A stretch of DNA of 22,219 bases from a virus. Its lineage: Duplodnaviria > Heunggongvirae > Uroviricota > Caudoviricetes. The stretch lies in IMG/VR virus record IMGVR_UViG_2681813227_000011; one strand, written 5' to 3'. Positions 1-22,219 of this stretch are shown here, one piece after another; position 1 is the stretch's first letter, and each line of letters opens with the position of its first letter. A model generated the notes under the pieces. It saw only the letters and a program-made list of their open reading frames with translations. It was not told the DNA's origin and made no database searches. The position numbers and the translations under genes are program-made.

Positions 1-131
1 GTGCAGCATCTTGCAGAGCATGGCATTAATACATCTAAGCGCTCGTGATTATAATATAATTACCTATATTAGCTCTGACCTGACAGTTACCGTTATTTAT
101 ACAGATATCTGTCAGATTACATCTAACCAAC

Positions 132-159
132 AAAAAACCGGAGCCGGACTCCGGTTTTT
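132..159 (-). terminator. Rho-independent terminator (bidirectional-looking hairpin)
   Basis: AAAAAA-CCGGAG-ccgga-CTCCGG-TTTTT: 6-bp GC-rich stem flanked by an A-run and a T-run, immediately downstream of the minus-strand ORF ending at 174. Confidence 0.6.
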
Positions 160-173
160 GTGAATCCGTCGGG

Positions 174-443
174 TTACTTCATCCCGCCAATATTTTCCCA
201 CGTCCCGTCAGCACGCAGGATTTGCAGCGGTCTTACCACACACTGTATCTGCTTTTTATCCGCATCCAGTATCACCACCTGCGTGATTACCCTGTCCTGC
301 TCCGGGATAATGCCATTCTCATCTGACTCCAGAATGTCTGCCGGTCCCAGTCGCAGCTGTGCTGTAAGTAACTCCCCGTGTTCACGGTCATCATGCTTTC
401 CGCAACCACACAGACGCTGCATAAGTTTTTTTAGTATGTTCAT
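174..443 (-). CDS. Small hypothetical protein (~89 aa from MNILKK), paralogous to the C-terminal domain of the upstream collagen-repeat protein
   Basis: ATG lies 1 nt after the stop of ORF 445..975 (TGAcATG). Its RLGPADILESDENGIIPEQD...LD...LQILRADGTW aligns with [20 protein letters not shown]...LD...[10 protein letters not shown] of the upstream protein. The longer track ORF 174..575 probably overextends the N-terminus. Confidence 0.35.
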   Translation of the reverse strand: MNILKKLMQRLCGCGKHDDREHGELLTAQLRLGPADILESDENGIIPEQDRVITQVVILDADKKQIQCVVRPLQILRADGTWENIGGMK

Positions 444-444
444 G

Positions 445-879
445 TCATTCTCCTGTTCTGCCTGTATCACTGCCCACTTCATCCAGCCCCTTAACATCCT
501 GCCACGGCCCGTCACCAAACCTGACCTGCAAATGCCGAAACAGCCCCTGAACCTGTGTGGCATCTTTGGGGTCAAGAAAGGTCAGTCCGGTGATGAGCGC
601 ACCATCTGTATCCGGGAACCAGCCATGGCTGTTTGTCTCAATAATGCTCGCCGGCCCCAGACGAAAACGGATTTGTGTCTCCCCCGGGTCGCCCTTCGGT
701 CCCTGAGGTCCGGTTGCCCCCACCGGGCCAGCCGCACCTGTTTCTCCTTTCGGTCCCTGTGGGCCTGCCGGGCCTGCCGGGCCTGCCGGGCCTGCCGCAC
801 CGGTATCTCCCTTTGGACCCTGTGGACCTGCATTTCCCGTATAGCGCGGCGATTTTTTTGATACCGATTTGCATTTCAT
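445..879 (-). CDS. Collagen-like (Gly-X-Y) repeat protein, phage tail-fibre-like; possibly 5'-truncated
   Basis: About 20 uninterrupted G-X-Y triplets ([53 protein letters not shown]) followed by a ~70-aa globular C-terminus. The track ORF opens at 975, but 880..975 overlaps the direct-repeat region; start is uncertain (ATG near 879). Confidence 0.5.
762..797. repeat. Perfect 9-bp tandem repeat (GGGCCTGCC x4), in frame within the collagen-like gene
   Basis: Direct reading of gggcctgccgggcctgccgggcctgccgggcctgcc; encodes (AGP)n on the minus strand. Confidence 0.8.
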
Positions 880-925
880 TTGATACCGCTGAAAAACGCC
901 GATACGCAACTTATTTGATACTAAA
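855..925. repeat. Direct repeats of TTTGATAC(CG) (3 copies) in the gap between mom and the collagen-like gene; candidate prophage right-end or transposase-binding repeats
   Basis: TTTGATACCG at ~857 and ~879, TTTGATAC at ~914, plus CGATAC at ~900. Function inferred from position only. Confidence 0.3.
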
Positions 926-967
926 TCGGCGCTTTTCTTTTGAGTTTTAGAATGAGTTTTTAAGCGC

Positions 968-1705
968 TCATTCACTCTCTTTCAAACCAGTTTTAACTGT
1001 TTGTGGTTTTGGGTAAGGCTGGACTTTGAATAGCTTTGTGTTGAGGCGTTTTCTGGCCCTCTTGTTCAGAAACCGGATGTAACGAAACTGTCGGAACTTA
1101 TGAACACTGGCTCTGTCAATATTAGCCCTCAGATGTTCACCTCGTTGTCCGCCTCGTTTAATGGCATTCCTGCAAATCTCGTGATACCACTCGCCATCAA
1201 GTTCATAGAATATTGATTCATGGCTGCCTACATAATCAAAATTGCTTGCCTGATACACGACACCAAGACAGCCACAACGCTCATCTGCAAACGACTGAAC
1301 CCACTGTACCTGCGGATAAAGCTGCCTGATTAGCTTGAGCGCGTAACTGATTGCCCTTGATTCGGAGTTTCTCGGCATACAGTCATGCAGCCATAGCCGG
1401 TTAAGCTCCATATATTCTCGGTTCTGCGTACCCGTTACGACGCGTGCACCACTGTTTGGGTTAAGGGCGTAACCCCATTGCATTACGCCAACAAGTTCCC
1501 GTCCTGAAAATATGCCCAGATGAAGGTAGGAGTTATTTACGAAACGGTGGCTGTAATGTTTATTGACGATGACCAGTCTGGCCAGCCAGCAACTTATTGT
1601 CTCAACCCGCAACTCACGGGAGCCATAACCAACGATATTGTCGTTATAGCGAATAAGTTCAGGCGTGCTGATGATACGGGATGTGACTTGCTTTCTGTTC
1701 CCCAC
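968..1705 (-). CDS. mom: Mom-like DNA modification protein (anti-restriction adenine modification)
   Basis: ~230-245 aa ORF immediately downstream of and overlapping a Com-like zinc-finger ORF, positioned after the invertase as in phage Mu. Identity rests on synteny; exact start is uncertain. Confidence 0.55.
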
Positions 1706-1859
1706 GACAGGATTTCCTTGTGTATGTGGGGTGCTCTGTGGCGCTCGGAGATGTGATTTGATTGAGGGTTTTACAGCGCGGACATTTTACTTCCAGATAA
1801 CTGAAACTGGCCCGTGCCAGTAGCTTATTGCAGTGTCGGCACCGTATGTTTCGATACAT
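1659..1859 (-). CDS. com: Com-like zinc-finger translational activator of mom (start at internal MYRNIRC)
   Basis: [30 protein letters not shown]: CxxC-16-CxxC zinc finger in a ~66-aa protein resembling Mu Com as I recall it; its 3' end overlaps the mom start. Confidence 0.6.
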
Positions 1860-2345: not shown

Positions 2346-2552
2346 ATGGATAAACTGACCACCGACCAAAAGTTACAGGCTGCGCGAATTGCAGCTGATA
2401 TCACAATTGCAGCAATGACATCCACCAGTTGTGTCTTTACCTCTTTTCATACAGCCGGTGATTCATCAGCTATGCAATTATGGAACGCGTGCTTTTCTGA
2501 TGTAATTCGGGCAATCAGCGAGTCAACTGACCCTCACGAACCGCAAAAATAG
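2346..2552 (+). CDS. Hypothetical small protein (68 aa from MDKLTTDQ)
   Basis: AGGAG Shine-Dalgarno 4-5 nt upstream of the ATG at ~2346; a hydrophobic stretch (IAADITIAAMTST). Converges on and overlaps the next ORF. Confidence 0.3.
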   Translation: MDKLTTDQKLQAARIAADITIAAMTSTSCVFTSFHTAGDSSAMQLWNACFSDVIRAISESTDPHEPQK

Positions 2553-2715
2553 CGCATCTTGGGGTACACAGGATCTGCATCGCTATCCACATTGCAGTGG
2601 TGAAGTTTCTATCCTGTAATGTATTTTCATCAAGTCCTGAACGTAGCGCATTGATAATTTCTGCGCTTAATATTTCCAGACCTTTGGTATCGGGCTGCTT
2701 TTTGTTCTTCTCCAT
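2515..2715 (-). CDS. Hypothetical small protein (66 aa)
   Basis: GAGG Shine-Dalgarno ~8 nt upstream of the ATG (agaggaaataatcATG). No recognisable family. Confidence 0.4.
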   Translation of the reverse strand: MEKNKKQPDTKGLEILSAEIINALRSGLDENTLQDRNFTTAMWIAMQILCTPRCAIFAVREGQLTR

Positions 2716-2789
2716 GATTATTTCCTCTGACTGGTATATACATCGCTCATGAAAATCAAACCGACAGGAGAAGCTGTCGGTTTGTATTG

Positions 2790-3035
2790 TTACATCATGG
2801 CACTGTCAGTTCCGGGCTGAACCGGCTCTGGTTGCTCTACGGGCTGAGGCTCATTCTCCGTGCTGTTTTCAGCCGGAGAATGGCCAACCATTCGGGCCAG
2901 CACTTCATCAACATATGCGTCGATTTGTGCCTCAAAATCCTTGCGAACCTGCGCCTTCAGCACGCGGTTCACTTCTTCAGAATAAAGTGCCTGTTTGACA
3001 AGCTCTTCAGTAACCGTGCCTTTAATCTCTGGCAT
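2790..3035 (-). CDS. Hypothetical acidic small protein (81 aa from MPEIKGTV)
   Basis: Strong Shine-Dalgarno (aaaaGGAGaatattcATG) at the internal start; the longer track ORF 2790..3146 is probably overextended. Acidic Pro/Glu-rich C-terminus. Confidence 0.45.
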   Translation of the reverse strand: MPEIKGTVTEELVKQALYSEEVNRVLKAQVRKDFEAQIDAYVDEVLARMVGHSPAENSTENEPQPVEQPEPVQPGTDSAMM

Positions 3036-3252
3036 GAATATTCTCCTTTTGCAGGTATATTGCCCCGTTATCAGAGCGGGTCGGGTCGTTTGGGGATGAC
3101 GGTGCCTGTGCTGTTTTACTGAGTTTTTCAGCTGCCGCATCATCAATTTTACGGCGAATATAATTTCTGATGACCTTATAACCGCCGCTCACCAGATATA
3201 ACGCACTGACCACAGCGCAGAAATAAAGCAGCATTGTATGAACGAATGTCAT
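3022..3252 (-). CDS. Hypothetical small membrane protein (76 aa, one predicted N-terminal transmembrane helix)
   Basis: LLYFCAVVSALYLVSGGY hydrophobic helix followed by a basic stretch; its stop overlaps the start of the next ORF by ~14 nt, suggesting a two-gene operon. Confidence 0.45.
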   Translation of the reverse strand: MTFVHTMLLYFCAVVSALYLVSGGYKVIRNYIRRKIDDAAAEKLSKTAQAPSSPNDPTRSDNGAIYLQKENIHARD

Positions 3253-3366
3253 ATAACCTTACCTTTGATATTGACTACATAATTCGTTATCGGGTAAAAA
3301 CATCGAAGCGACTGATAACCACTCCTTCGGGAGTATTTTTATTTTCCTTTATGGGTTAGGTAGCTC

Positions 3367-3400
3367 CCGCCAGCCATATCATGACCGGCGGGATTTTTTT
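3367..3400 (+). terminator. Hairpin plus T-run (terminator-like in plus-strand polarity)
   Basis: CCCGCC-N15-GGCGGG followed by TTTTTTT, at the 3' end of the esterase gene. Polarity is opposite to the surrounding genes, so its role is unclear. Confidence 0.3.
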
Positions 3401-5438
3401 ATTCTGTTACCGCTTTTTTCACTTCCACCACAATGCTGTCAATCAGCACCGGGTAAGTTGCATTTTTGGTGATATCCGTTACGCGGAGTTTGTCCACCGG
3501 GAAAGTTCCTACTGGTGACTGCGTCAGGGTAAACGCGGCACCATCCTGACCATCAATAACCGGAATAACCTGAAGGCTGTTATTTCCTGCAAAACGGAAG
3601 GCCAGCGTATGCCATTCATTATCAAATGCACCAAAGGTTCCCAGTTTCTGGTTATTTGTTGCCACTTTTGCATTGTGGTACATCACATTCAGGTCTTTTG
3701 CGTCTGTCTGGATGTAGAACGATGCCAGCAGATTATTCCCTGCATCCCCTGTCAGGGTGACACCCTGCGGCAGAGAGGAAACCGGCCAGTAAAGCGCCAT
3801 GACATACTGGTTTGCCACCAGGTCGCCCGGTACTTTAAAACGACAACTGATTAAACCACCATTTTTCAGCAGTTCAGCACCAGTACCGGCATCATGATCC
3901 AGATACCAGGATGATTTACCTGTTTCCTTGGTCAGTTTCATTGCCTTACCACCTGTGCCTCCTGCATCACTGATAATTTCAGCTTTACCGCCAGCCGGCT
4001 CCCAGCCCTGGGCTTTCAGATTTCCTTCTGACTCACTGACACGGTAAGACAGCAGTGTTGTGGTTACTGCTTCAGTTTCTGAAGGTGACGGCACTGGTGC
4101 TTCAGTTTCAGAAGATGGAACATCGGCTTTTACTGTGGTTCGCCCCGCATGAGTCAGAACTGCCGTGGCCAGACGGTCGGAAATAATCCCACGACGTGCC
4201 CATGAACTGAAATGGCTGGCCCGGTCCGCAGATGTCCAGGTGGCGGCACTGTTACGCCACGTTGAGCCGTAATAACCAATGGATTCAATATCCGGGTCTT
4301 CTGCCGGATTGTTGGTGGGTACATTCGCGCCATTTTCATCTGTCATTAATGGGACGAAATGAATGTTTTTATCTGTTTTATTTTTGTAGCCGTCATAGAT
4401 TGCCTGGTATGCCTGTTCGTTTTTCTGTTTCCAGAAATACGTGGTATCACCACAAATCCACGGAACGCCAGCAGCACTGCCACCGGTACACTGTTCCGCC
4501 TGTTCAGCCAGGTCTGCGCGGAATTTTTCCACCATCGCCAGAAACAGCGCAGAATGCTCCGTCGGCTTCGCATCAATATCAAACTCGCCCTGCATCCACA
4601 CCACAGCAAGCAGGCGGTTTTTCGGGTTCTTCGCCAGTGCCGCTTTTGTCCGGCTGATTAAGTCCTTATACAGCGGCTTATCCACACCCCAGCGGGCTGA
4701 GTCCTCTGAAGCACCCGTGCTGTCACTGTACGTGCCGTCAGCACCCGCCGTGAATGCAGAACCACCACGGCAGCAGGGAACCAGCAGAATCCCCGCATCT
4801 GCCGGAATAAACGGCAGCAGTTTTTTGGCAATGTGAAGCCCCTGACCCACGGTGCCATATTGCCCTTTAGCCACATCCGCTTTCGGGTGATTTTTTCCAC
4901 TCATATCCTGCACATCATGCAGACAGTGGTCGGCCAGAATGATGTCGTTATACTGACAGGCTTTACCTCCCGGCGTGACTGTACTGCGACGGGCTAACTG
5001 CATAATACGCGGTTCGGGGCGGTCATATGTCTCCGGCAGTGGCAGACCTTCACCGTAAGCCATACCGTTTGACTGACCAGCAAGAACCACCACGTAATAC
5101 CAGGAAGGGGAGCTGGAAGCAGTTTCATTTCCTGACGGACGGGTATGTGTTTCAGCATTATCCCAGTCTGACGGTTCAGCAGTACCGGCAACATCAGCAC
5201 TTAACGGAATGACCGCACCAATACCCGCTCCGGTAATTTCCACACTCGGATCACCGGATACTGGCCTTACCCACAGGCAATCCCGGGTATTAAAACTGAT
5301 GAGACAGTCAGCAAATGTCATTCCTCCTTTTGTTTCGGCCGGAGGAAAGGGAGCCTCAAGAAATGCCGCTGTACCACCGGAAACTTTAACAGTAAAGTTT
5401 CCGGGCATTGATGATAGTTGAACCCATTTGGACGTCAT
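3399..5438 (-). CDS. Prophage-type sialate O-acetylesterase (NanS-p-like): SASA/SGNH esterase domain plus C-terminal lectin-like domain
   Basis: VVVLAGQSNGMAYGEG matches the GQSN(M) catalytic-serine block of the sialate O-acetylesterase family. A Thr/Glu/Pro/Ser-rich linker and a ~200-aa C-terminal domain follow. 679 aa. Confidence 0.7.
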   Translation of the reverse strand: MTSKWVQLSSMPGNFTVKVSGGTAAFLEAPFPPAETKGGMTFADCLISFNTRDCLWVRPVSGDPSVEITGAGIGAVIPLSADVAGTAEPSDWDNAETHTRPSGNETASSSPSWYYVVVLAGQSNGMAYGEGLPLPETYDRPEPRIMQLARRSTVTPGGKACQYNDIILADHCLHDVQDMSGKNHPKADVAKGQYGTVGQGLHIAKKLLPFIPADAGILLVPCCRGGSAFTAGADGTYSDSTGASEDSARWGVDKPLYKDLISRTKAALAKNPKNRLLAVVWMQGEFDIDAKPTEHSALFLAMVEKFRADLAEQAEQCTGGSAAGVPWICGDTTYFWKQKNEQAYQAIYDGYKNKTDKNIHFVPLMTDENGANVPTNNPAEDPDIESIGYYGSTWRNSAATWTSADRASHFSSWARRGIISDRLATAVLTHAGRTTVKADVPSSETEAPVPSPSETEAVTTTLLSYRVSESEGNLKAQGWEPAGGKAEIISDAGGTGGKAMKLTKETGKSSWYLDHDAGTGAELLKNGGLISCRFKVPGDLVANQYVMALYWPVSSLPQGVTLTGDAGNNLLASFYIQTDAKDLNVMYHNAKVATNNQKLGTFGAFDNEWHTLAFRFAGNNSLQVIPVIDGQDGAAFTLTQSPVGTFPVDKLRVTDITKNATYPVLIDSIVVEVKKAVTE

Positions 5439-5537: not shown

Positions 5538-6098
5538 TTATTTTTCCGAAACGCTCGCAGGATAATAACGATAAAGGGTTGAAAGACCGATATCAAAAAT
5601 AAGTGCCACCTGTCTTCGACTGACACCCCCGGCCAGTAAACGCCCGACCTGCTCGTATTGTTCCTGCGTGAGACGGCGGGGTCTGCCGCCGGTTCGTCCC
5701 CTTTCACGGGCAGCTGCAAGACCAGCCCGTGTCCGTTCGACAATTAATTCACGCTCCATTTCTGCCAGCGCACCCATTATGTGAAAAAAGAAGCGCCCCA
5801 TGGGGGTTGACGTATCAATGTTGTCAGTAAGACTACGAAAATTTATCCCCTGTTGCTGTAATTCATCTGTCAGCGCAACAAGGTGGCGCATACTGCGCCC
5901 CAGCCTGTCCAGTTTCCAGACCATCAGCGTGTCACCGGGTTTTAGTTTCTTCAGTGCCCGCTTCAGTCCCGGCCGCTGTGTCGTTTTACCACTCATTTTG
6001 TCTTCAAAAATCTGCTCACATCCTGCACATTCCAGCGCATTTCTTTGTAAACCGGTGTTCTGGTCATTTGTTGATACGCGTATATAGCCAATCAGCAT
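5538..6098 (-). CDS. gin: Serine DNA invertase, Gin/Pin/Cin/Hin family
   Basis: N-terminus MLIGYIRVSTNDQNTGLQ (catalytic Ser in the resolvase/invertase motif), C-terminal helix-turn-helix, 186 aa, adjacent to an invertible tail-fibre segment. Confidence 0.9.
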   Translation of the reverse strand: MLIGYIRVSTNDQNTGLQRNALECAGCEQIFEDKMSGKTTQRPGLKRALKKLKPGDTLMVWKLDRLGRSMRHLVALTDELQQQGINFRSLTDNIDTSTPMGRFFFHIMGALAEMERELIVERTRAGLAAARERGRTGGRPRRLTQEQYEQVGRLLAGGVSRRQVALIFDIGLSTLYRYYPASVSEK

Positions 6099-6152
6099 GT
6101 ATTTACCTTCCTTAAAAAGAGGTGGAAAAGCCTTTTAAAGCAGATATACGGC

Positions 6153-6178
6153 ATCCCTGAAACCTCGGTTTACGGGAT
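6153..6178. other. gix-like recombination site (left, invertase-proximal)
   Basis: ATCCCTGAAACCTCGGTTTACGGGAT: inverted counterpart of the site at 7579..7604 with central AAACC-TC-GGTTT. It is ~55 bp upstream of the invertase start and directly follows an in-frame stop. Confidence 0.65.
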
Positions 6179-6532
6179 ACGGTAAACAGGGCCGCGAATG
6201 CCCTGCCATCAAACGGTACGGCTGTTGCAGCAAGCAGGCTGGCAAATGCCCGCAGAATCAATGGTGTCGCCTTTGACGGCACGCAGGATATAAACATTAC
6301 GTCAGGAATGCCGGAATCAACGGCCAATCAGCGTTATGTTACAGGGGTAAGACTGGGAGCGCAGGCATTAAGCGGCGGACTGGAATATAATTACTCCCTG
6401 TCATCAGGAAATGTGATTACCGGTTTTAAGACTGACGGAGACTGGGAAATGCGTGGTGGTGATGACCGTGTTTATTACAGACAGATACAATATTGTATTA
6501 ATGGGCATTGGGTATCCGCTGCAAGTATTTAA
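6161..6532 (+). CDS. Silent alternative tail-fibre C-terminal cassette (Sv'-like; no start of its own in this orientation)
   Basis: Plus-strand frame translates to NLGLRDTVNRAANALPS...RYVTGVRLGAQ...YYRQIQYCINGHWVSAASI, parallel to the C-terminal 127 aa of the expressed fibre (NLGLRETVNKAADALPS...RYVQNVQLGAQ...YYRPVQIYINNAWRTVSSV). A TGA sits immediately upstream. Confidence 0.7.
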   Translation, partial: NLGLRDTVNRAANALPSNGTAVAASRLANARRINGVAFDGTQDINITSGMPESTANQRYVTGVRLGAQALSGGLEYNYSLSSGNVITGFKTDGDWEMRGGDDRVYYRQIQYCINGHWVSAASI

Positions 6533-6653
6533 TTAACGGGGGCATAGCACACAGCAGCCAGCATCTGAAATATGCGTTATTTCAGACAAGCATTGCCTGT
6601 ATATGGCGATAGTATTATTCCTGTTTTTATCATTGATTTACATGGTGATGTTT

Positions 6654-7175
6654 ATGCAACTGATTAATGTCAAACGATATTACCCGAAAGACAAACCCTA
6701 TGGTGAGGATGTTCAGTATTTCCAGAGTGAGGACGGAAGGGATTTTTATGAATCTATCCCGCTTTTTACAAAGAAATACAAACTCTGTATTTCGCCTGTA
6801 ACGGGTATTATCTGCTCTGTTGCTGAAGATGTCTCTGCTTTATATCCGGCAGGTTTTACTGTTGTTGAAGTGGACGAACTGCCGGAAGGTGTGAATATTG
6901 ACGGTAACTGGCAGTTTTCTGATGGCCTGATATCAAAGGTGCCGGTAAACTGGAAGACGGTTGCTGAAAAGCGTCGCTCATCGCTGCTCCAGGAAGCCAA
7001 CGAAACCGTGGATGACTGGAAAACAGAATTAAAACTGGACATGATTAGCGATGAAAATAAATTACAGCTGACGCGCTGGATGGCGTATATCCGACAGCTT
7101 AAAGAAATGCACTTTAATGATATTGCCAGTGAGGGGCATTACCAGGCGATTCCCTGGCCGGAAAAACCGGAATAA
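6654..7175 (+). CDS. Tail-fibre assembly protein (Mu U / lambda Tfa family), co-oriented with the silent cassette
   Basis: ~174 aa from MQLINVKRYYP. The C-terminus LTRWMAYIRQLKEMHF...AIPWPEKPE follows the Tfa pattern as I recall lambda Tfa. The track start at 6603 adds an implausible hydrophobic leader. Confidence 0.7.
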   Translation: MQLINVKRYYPKDKPYGEDVQYFQSEDGRDFYESIPLFTKKYKLCISPVTGIICSVAEDVSALYPAGFTVVEVDELPEGVNIDGNWQFSDGLISKVPVNWKTVAEKRRSSLLQEANETVDDWKTELKLDMISDENKLQLTRWMAYIRQLKEMHFNDIASEGHYQAIPWPEKPE

Positions 7176-19413: not shown

Positions 19414-20361
19414 TTACAGATAATCCGCGACAACCAGCTCCAGCTTGCCCTTCATCTCGTTAGAGACGGTTGCGTTTCCGTCTGCGAACAGTTCACGCTC
19501 CAGCAGCTGCACCGCCTGTTTTTCCAGCGAGGTGGGGACAACAATATGGGTGGGTTTAATGCCGAGTTTGCGGCCACCGTCAGCGGTAAATTCGCGCATG
19601 GCTGACCAGCCGTGCCACAGTGCATCCAGCGTCAGCGGTGACTGCATCATGTAGGCCATCTGCCAGAAGCCGTAGCCCACATTGCGACGGGCGGATGCAC
19701 CAAACACAAATTCGTTATCGGTGAATGCGCGGCCTTCATCGACTTTGGTCTGGGCAACCAGTTCAGCCTTACGGCGATCCTGATAAATCAGCGGTTTTAC
19801 CGCGCGGGAGCAGTCAAGCAGATACCAGGCCGGACCGCTGTAATCAGCCTGTGCGCCGACAGAGCCGGTTTTTGCCACAAACATATTGCTGACCATCTGC
19901 GCATCCCCGGAGCCATCCACTTTGGGGTAAACCGGATGTTCGGTATCAAAGAAGTTCTGACCGTCATAGCAGGCCGCACTGATCCCGTCACGCAGGGCAG
20001 CAAAGACCAGCTCATCCGGTTGTACCGCCGCAGCGCGCCCCATCTCCTGGAACAACGGGGAATAAATACCGAGGTTGTCGTCTTCGAAGTCATCGCGGCT
20101 AATGGCGACAGTGCCTTCAAAAGTTTTGTTCACGATGGCATAGCCATAGGCTTTCATCTTCTCGATGACGCGGGAGCCGATCCACTCACGGAACTGCGGG
20201 AACTGCCCCAGCCAGCCGTAGGTGTTGGATTTCGATGTGGAGGGCACGGTCATCGCAATTTTTTTGTACTGCGACGGGGCCATGGACATCCCGGCCTGAA
20301 AATCAGAACGGTAGCCCGTCATCAGGGCGGTGATCATCGCCGGTGTAATCGGGGTAGGCAT
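19414..20361 (-). CDS. T: Major capsid protein (Mu T-like)
   Basis: 315 aa, directly downstream of the protease/scaffold gene with an ATG/stop overlap; typical Mu-type capsid protein size. Confidence 0.85.
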   Translation of the reverse strand: MPTPITPAMITALMTGYRSDFQAGMSMAPSQYKKIAMTVPSTSKSNTYGWLGQFPQFREWIGSRVIEKMKAYGYAIVNKTFEGTVAISRDDFEDDNLGIYSPLFQEMGRAAAVQPDELVFAALRDGISAACYDGQNFFDTEHPVYPKVDGSGDAQMVSNMFVAKTGSVGAQADYSGPAWYLLDCSRAVKPLIYQDRRKAELVAQTKVDEGRAFTDNEFVFGASARRNVGYGFWQMAYMMQSPLTLDALWHGWSAMREFTADGGRKLGIKPTHIVVPTSLEKQAVQLLERELFADGNATVSNEMKGKLELVVADYL

Positions 20362-22135: not shown

Positions 22136-22219
22136 ATTGCCTCCGCATAAAGGATGAATATAAAATAAACAGGCGGTCAGTGTACGCTTAACTTGTAGTG
22201 GTCAAGTAATATTGGCCAC

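Follow-up and report, generated by a model that had tools for sequence, protein, structure and literature searches.

The sequence between mom and a tail-fibre remnant in DNA near-identical to that of Escherichia coli OkiPb01711: a probable right end of an Sp18-type Mu-like prophage with three predicted transposase sites

What is the short sequence that separates mom from a 'collagen' gene in this DNA, and do the repeats in it mark the end of a transposable prophage? The window analysed here (the whole stretch of 22,219 nt, IMG/VR record IMGVR_UViG_2681813227_000011) is 99.9% identical over its full length to DNA of OkiPb01711 (E. coli; bovine, Okinawa), and the genes of interest here all lie on its minus strand. 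The last gene before the sequence in question is mom (adenine-modification protein; 968–1705, minus strand, stop codon at 968–970), the product of which is 80% identical to Mu Mom (Pfam family Mom, E = 8e-77). Just upstream of mom is com (1659–1859, minus strand; Pfam Zn_ribbon_Com, RefSeq Com family protein), the translational activator of mom. A preliminary description had placed a candidate prophage right end at 855–967. Our comparisons make it very probable that an E. coli transposable prophage, Mu-like and of the Sp18 type, has its right end (attR) in window 840–967 and that the repeats there are transposase sites.

The boundary can be placed to the base. When the first 2.4 kb of the window were compared with phage records (megablast), bases 1/128–840 shared 97–98% identity with tail-fibre genes of Stx and other lambdoid phages, and from base 840 on the matches were restricted to regions annotated as 'inserted Mu-like phage'; the proposal of a Mu-like right end between mom and the collagen gene is borne out, with lambdoid similarity stopping and Mu-like similarity starting at 840. 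In GenBank LC727895, the 'inserted Mu-like phage' feature ends at the base equivalent to window 840. Phage Evi, which has an unbroken tail-fibre gene, reads ...catttcccgTCAGACC where the window reads ...catttcccgTATAGCG, and the two diverge exactly at 840; in this prophage-free comparison the repeat sequence is never contiguous with the tail-fibre gene.

The sequence from 839/840 onward recurs in E. coli genomes beside unrelated genes: bcsA, a DUF2207-domain gene, paaA, a fimbrial usher gene and hyfE. Aligned together with the tail-fibre junction, these six junctions are the same from T840 inward and different outside (base 839 reads g, g, g, c, a, g across the six). T840 is the terminus again in two more complete copies and in 13 mom-anchored, metagenome-derived viral contigs, which add 13 further distinct flanks. 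More than 20 independent insertions have a common sequence from T840 inward and diverge outside it, so that the sequence sits at a phage/host junction with a host side that varies from insertion to insertion. The prophage terminus is T840, 15 bp outside the start first proposed (855): the right end stands, its exact start does not. The terminal 17 bp (840–856, plus strand) read 5'-TATAGCGCGGCGATTTT from the outside in, with T840 as the first base common to all independent insertions. The same 17-nt offset, with a T(A/G)T(A/T)GCGCG start, is found in six other enterobacterial genera and in Yersinia phages (see below).

Three copies of the 8-mer TTTGATAC follow the terminus on the plus strand, at 857–864 (R1), 879–886 (R2) and 914–921 (R3), which puts them +18, +40 and +75 from the terminus. 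CG comes next after R1 and R2, and TA after R3, as had been described. The repeat unit extends to about 16 nt (the GCGATTTTTTTGATAC family), and the spacings are 22 and 35. Each copy is a predicted transposase-binding site. The only other TTTGATAC in the 22 kb, on either strand, is at 19943–19950 (minus strand). In 100 shuffles that preserve dinucleotides, TTTGATAC occurred on average 0.53 times per window (2 at most), and none of the 100 had four or more copies. From this rate, about 0.0014 copies are expected per 113 nt on one strand, and the probability of three by chance is about 1e-10.

Seven complete copies of the prophage, about 39 kb each, were compared. Genes at their far end encode a repressor, a Ner-like protein, a 695-aa protein assigned by Pfam to Mu-transpos_C and HTH_Tnp_Mu_1, and a MuB-type ATPase (Phage-MuB_C); the complete copies thus have both a MuA-family transposase and a MuB-type ATPase. 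The transposase shares 22% identity with MuA (E = 2e-15), and HTH_Tnp_Mu_2, the family of the MuA end-binding domain, was not detected in it by Pfam. The termini of the complete copies are 5'-T(G/A)TAACCAGGTGAATCATTTGATAC... and ...GTATCAAAAAAATCGCCGCGCTATA-3'. All E. coli copies have ...TA-3' as their right terminus, and the left terminus is 5'-TG in five of the seven complete copies and 5'-TA in the other two (the termini of the relatives are TA or TG); none of the complete copies has the TG...CA pair of terminal dinucleotides.

All seven complete copies are flanked by a perfect 4-bp duplication (GTGA, CGAG, CCCA, TTAG, CAGG, TGCT and GGCG), and the empty sites in K-12, at paaA and hyfE, have a single copy of the 4-mer. 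Duplications of 5 or 6 bp were sought with all one-base shifts of the boundaries, and such a length is possible in one copy out of seven (the one in paaA), by coincidence. The depositors of LC727895 annotated a 4-bp 'duplication due to insertion of Mu_JNE122137', and both the position of the Sp18-type end and the 4-bp duplication are therefore already present in GenBank annotation. The preliminary description had expected TG...CA ends and a 5-bp duplication; this family has T(G/A)...TA ends and 4 bp instead. According to a 2021 survey, TG–CA had been kept in all Mu- and B3-like phages described until then, the duplications are 5 bp for Mu and 6 bp for B3, and the TA–TA ends of Leptospira elements were called unusual (PMC8705779). 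The standard check for a Mu-like end (TG...CA plus a 5-bp duplication) would miss or misplace Sp18-type ends.

The repeats occur at both ends of the complete copies. TTTGATAC is found at +18/+40/+75 from the right terminus and at +18/+113/+165 from the left one, with all copies pointing inward, so that the two sets are in inverted orientation, and the left set lies beside the MuA/MuB-type gene pair. Six of the seven or eight TTTGATAC copies in a complete element are at its two ends, and only one or two are elsewhere in the 39 kb. The claim of three transposase-type repeats at a Mu-like right end is thereby supported at the sequence level. One of the copies elsewhere, at window 19943–19950 (about 19.97–20.48 kb in L008–L012, L020 and L021), is kept in all seven complete prophages, at almost the exact middle of the genome and inside the major head gene. 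Mu has a strong gyrase site near its genome centre. The mid-genome TTTGATAC may be a coincidence within a conserved coding region.

The same arrangement is found outside E. coli. The same 8-mers were found by blastn at +18/+40/+75 in the Yersinia pestis phages vB_YpM_Tongde, vB_YpM_5 and vB_YpM_6, inward of a terminus that reads 5'-TAAAGCGCGC. When species-representative genomes were scanned, 15 loci were returned, from Leminorella, Sodalis, Klebsiella, Limnobaculum, Arsenophonus and Edwardsiella; the scan demanded three 8-mers at this spacing, and the conservation of the repeats among these loci is partly by construction, but that of their offset from the terminus is not. In all 15 loci a T(A/G)T(A/T)GCGCG block starts exactly 17 nt before the first repeat. 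The flanks upstream of the block differ between copies within one genome, and the spacers between the repeats have diverged.

Two further searches, one anchored on mom and the other on the transposase gene, were made without the repeat and are hence free of that bias. The ends found beside mom fall into three classes: Mu-type ends (...GCCGCTTCA, without TTTGATAC), TTTGATAC-type ends, and ends that have TTCAAGAT at exactly +18/+40/+75. True Mu-type ends (...CGTGCGCCGCTTCA) adjoin other mom homologues and are without TTTGATAC. In the transposase-based search, three forward copies lie 5' of the gene at almost all loci that have 1.2 kb or more of sequence upstream (at two E. coli-type loci one of the three deviates from the exact 8-mer). 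Transposases at TTTGATAC loci share 79–99% identity with the query, which was taken from a complete E. coli copy, and those at TTCAAGAT loci share 72–77% with it; the one exception to this pairing is a match that covered residues 1–189 only. The mom-carrying TTCAAGAT sister lineage (right ends L094, L097 and L102; left ends L154, L157, L158, L162 and L164) has the right terminus 5'-TAAAGCGCGG and three copies at its left end as well, and two contigs join a TTCAAGAT right end to a TTCAAGAT left end, with TTCAAGAT three times at each. Across these loci the end motif switches together with the transposase lineage, by sequence comparison, at fixed positions.

How such an end might be used can be outlined by analogy with transposition of the Mu type. 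R1–R3, at +18, +40 and +75, would be binding sites for the phage's own MuA-family DDE transposase, and so would the three copies of opposite orientation at +18, +113 and +165 of the left end. With all six sites occupied, the transposase would form a synaptic complex, which would nick at the terminal A-3' and join both ends to the target with a 4-bp stagger. The other strand of the element ends ...GCGCTATA-3', the complement of T840 being the 3'-terminal A that would be joined to the target. A search of the literature returned no binding or cleavage experiment on an Sp18-type transposase, and both the binding and the chemistry are predictions from sequence.

It is at this step that an alternative reading has some room. 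The sequence could be a right end in which TTTGATAC has a different role, for instance in binding one of the host factors IHF, HU or Fis or a protein for packaging or regulation, with the transposase reading other bases, e.g. the terminal 17 bp. Compatible with this are the predicted status of the contact between transposase and TTTGATAC, the second conserved feature of the end, that is, the terminal T(A/G)T(A/T)GCGCG block, and the failure of Pfam to detect the family of the MuA end-binding domain. A host factor would leave unexplained why TTTGATAC gives way to TTCAAGAT together with the transposase lineage, at fixed positions and in hosts of the same order; a motif that changes with the transposase lineage while keeping its positions is what is expected of transposase sites, and this argues against a host-factor site. 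The layout of six sites, with an equal end-proximal offset at both ends and 22 bp between R1 and R2, is moreover that of the Mu transposase sites. A packaging signal in triplicate at both ends would be unexpected, since Mu packaging starts at the left end. We regard this reading as improbable, and take the repeats as probable transposase sites.

Much less survives of the idea that there is no element boundary here and that the repeats are part of the 'collagen-like' gene, either of its 5' coding sequence or of a 5' regulatory region (as promoter or operator iterons). The idea has in its favour an open frame (445–975, minus strand) that runs from the repeat region into a sequence of GXY-type repeats. 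The intact gene of Evi, however, parts from the window at exactly base 840, beyond which it still codes for tail fibre; the tail-fibre remnant is annotated in RefSeq as a pseudogene without its N-terminus; the stretch 840–967 accompanies mom into unrelated loci; and a promoter scan did not find a sigma-70-like promoter in 780–1050. We give this idea almost no weight. From the junction comparison with Evi and the RefSeq annotation it follows that the 'collagen gene' of the preliminary description is the 3' part of a lambdoid side tail-fibre gene (445–839, minus strand, with collagen-like GXY repeats; 97–98% identity to its lambdoid relatives), and that past 839 the frame stays open as an artefact of reading across the junction of the insertion. 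Judged from these comparisons, a Mu-like phage has entered a resident lambdoid prophage at its side tail-fibre gene, and the upstream part of the window (1–839) represents the 3' remnant of that gene. That the repeats are a functionless chance or low-complexity feature of the AT-rich spacer downstream of mom is hardly credible for a region that is indeed short and AT-rich, but whose repeat count was reached in none of the 100 shuffles and whose repeats have identical positions in phages with diverged spacers and are mirrored at the left end.

How close is this end to that of Mu? In Mu, too, mom is the immediate neighbour of the right end (its stop codon is 115 bp from the end, against 128 bp here). 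Both right ends have three repeats in their outermost 80 bp or so, a first core that starts about 20 bp in, and a distance of 22 bp between R1 and R2. The conserved CGAAA cores of the right end of Mu are at 22, 44 and 56 (the last one inverted), and those of its left end at 22, 127 and 159/167; the left end has three more sites both in Mu and here, with L1 about 100 bp from L2/L3. The repeat consensus, however, is TTTGATAC here and ...CGAAA(A/G) in Mu. Mu also has an inverted R3, a CA-3' terminus and a 5-bp duplication, against a direct R3, TA-3' and 4 bp here. Homology of the sites with the Mu right end was considered and rejected: a global alignment of the two ends scored z = 1.1 against shuffles, and blastn (word size 11) against 50,697 phage records gave no match to Mu or D108. 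The absence of sequence homology with the Mu end fits a transposase with no more than 22% identity to MuA. The analogy with Mu would thus be one of architecture, not of site homology: this end has most of the architecture of a Mu-type end, and lacks homologous sites, CA-3' and the 5-bp duplication.

A motif, TGAAAAACGC (890–899), had been described as loosely reminiscent of the Mu right end, and it has 9 nt in common with Mu R1. This likeness does not hold up, given the z of 1.1 for the alignment with Mu; as a Mu-type site, TGAAAAACGC was rejected, being absent at that position in the relatives and forming one (the outer) arm of an inverted repeat. The resemblance to Mu R1 is best taken as coincidence, because the motif is not conserved in the relatives. 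The inverted repeat of 13 bp (891–903 and 925–937; 92% complementary) encloses R3 and, read in the sense of mom, is followed by a U-run, which makes it a candidate intrinsic terminator of mom (891–937, minus strand). The mom-sense fold has a 13-pair stem followed by UUUUU, present in the minimum-free-energy structure, and the whole 136-nt stretch folds better than all of 200 shuffles (z = -3.7). A simple scan for the terminator consensus made no call on the 891–937 hairpin, the loop of which is 21 nt; its one terminator-like match, at 950–973 (plus strand), overlaps the mom stop codon on the wrong strand. An Rfam search of 700–2400 gave nothing notable. The hairpin that encloses R3 is absent from the other genera, which have different hairpins just inside R3. 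Its long loop and its lack of conservation make the terminator reading a weak one, but no other is as economical, and most likely the 891–937 hairpin, with TGAAAAACGC in it, is the terminator of mom.

The element belongs, by sequence, to a known family, and its right end is in that respect ordinary and already known. Sp18 of E. coli O157:H7 Sakai and its STEC relatives (e.g. Mu_JNE122137 in the Stx phage LC727895) have the same terminal sequence, and the family shares the gene order mom, com, DUF826/DUF1378/DUF6645, invertase and tail genes. Window 832–22197 aligns with a copy of the family in O157:H7 (L012) in three collinear blocks at about 98% identity. Sp18 itself is described as intact, packaged and not circularised (PMC2669165); its location varies and is often within other prophages (PMC7430833, PMC10132054), and the family likewise inserts at variable loci, other prophages included (PMC10132054, PMC7430833). 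Compared with the family, the copy in the window is truncated by an IS at 22197 and is sited in a lambdoid tail-fibre gene beside tccP/espJ.

Records derived from virions, with host DNA outside the terminus, are available for the three Yersinia pestis phages (classified as Muvirus in the NCBI taxonomy). They share about 77% identity with the E. coli end across the repeats, but their spacers have diverged and their left-end spacing is 104/42, not 95/52. The L1–L2 spacer of one of them (vB_YpM_5, L019) resembles that of Mu (L017), with CCGGGAGGA..GGAT..CGGGAT.TGATGGGAT, and the transposase-site motif differs; on this comparison the ends seem mosaic, with a Mu-like spacer and non-Mu binding sites. 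Non-canonical TA–TA termini, instead of TG...CA, have been reported for transposable prophages of Leptospira (Olo Ndela et al. 2021, PMC8705779); those elements, however, have B3/Tn552-type transposases and 6-bp duplications, whereas the transposase here is of the MuA type, the duplication is 4 bp and the left terminus is TG or TA.

In the literature searched we found no published account of the Sp18 ends, the duplication length, the TTTGATAC motif or the TTTGATAC/TTCAAGAT switch. Only the switch is modestly new, and it is a property of the family and not of this locus. It is an evenly balanced question, in our judgement, whether the Sp18-type phages and their enterobacterial relatives form a distinct MuA-like branch, apparently undescribed in print, that has a 4-bp stagger, tolerates TA-3', keeps an 8-mer core fixed at +18/+40/+75, and has switched its specificity from TTTGATAC to TTCAAGAT between transposases of about 75% identity. 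If true, such a natural swap of specificity could serve to dissect the way in which Mu-type transposases recognise their ends. Sp18-type prophages are the commonest Mu-like prophage family of pathogenic E. coli. For locating their ends, the lineage-specific 8-mers at fixed positions are a simple sequence signature, and they offer a testable hypothesis on end recognition by a transposase so distant from MuA.

The annotation of this locus can be settled on three points: the boundary is at 840, the tail-fibre gene is broken by the insertion of a phage into a prophage, and the Mu-like copy is a truncated remnant. What survives of the Sp18-type prophage is its right 21.4 kb (840–22197, minus strand), from mom to a virion-morphogenesis gene, collinear, at about 98% identity, with the complete O157 prophage L012. 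An IS3-family element cuts the prophage at 22197/22198, and collinearity with the complete prophages stops at 22197. Beyond the cut, OkiPb01711 has IS3-family and IS30 transposase genes (L001 25236–27302) and then lambdoid lysis genes; its annotation includes no A, B, repressor or left end, and the left 17 kb are missing. In the 49 kb examined, neither the lambdoid morphogenesis genes nor the part of the tail-fibre gene for the N-terminus came to light, and both were presumably lost too. A left end and a duplication for the window's own copy were looked for and do not exist, as a result of the IS-mediated deletion. The copy is an immobile remnant that cannot transpose, because the left end and the transposition genes are lost. 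By analogy with the 4-bp duplications of the complete copies and the GenBank annotation, the four target bases that adjoin the terminus (CCCG, 836–839) would be the duplicated 4-mer, had the left junction survived. In Sp18-type prophages, RefSeq annotates a 'tRNA-OTHER' between the head-morphogenesis and virion-morphogenesis genes (e.g. L008 26231–26315 and L009 21861–21948, and other complete copies), and it is at this spot that the IS truncation falls in the window.

Some smaller features of the window were also observed. Tandem units of GGCCTGCCG are found at 780–797, in the collagen-like part of the tail-fibre remnant, and the offset between window and L001 coordinates shifts by 9 bp upstream of 940; the GGCCTGCCG repeat is the likely site of this 9-bp difference in copy number. 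In all Sp18-type copies, genes of the DUF826, DUF1378 and DUF6645 families are found between the invertase gene and com (about 2500–5438 in the window, with the DUF6645 gene at 3399–5438, minus strand). Genes of these three families are typical of lambdoid prophage late regions. The DUF6645 gene shares 78% identity with a second copy in the neighbouring lambdoid prophage (L001 29133–30808), and the module looks like one exchanged between Mu-like and lambdoid phages. A gene for a Gin/Hin-type recombinase (5538–6098, minus strand) adjoins tail-fibre and tail-fibre-assembly genes of the opposite orientation; this region (5538–7175) is the invertible host-range segment of the Sp18 family, the orientation of which varies among the complete copies.
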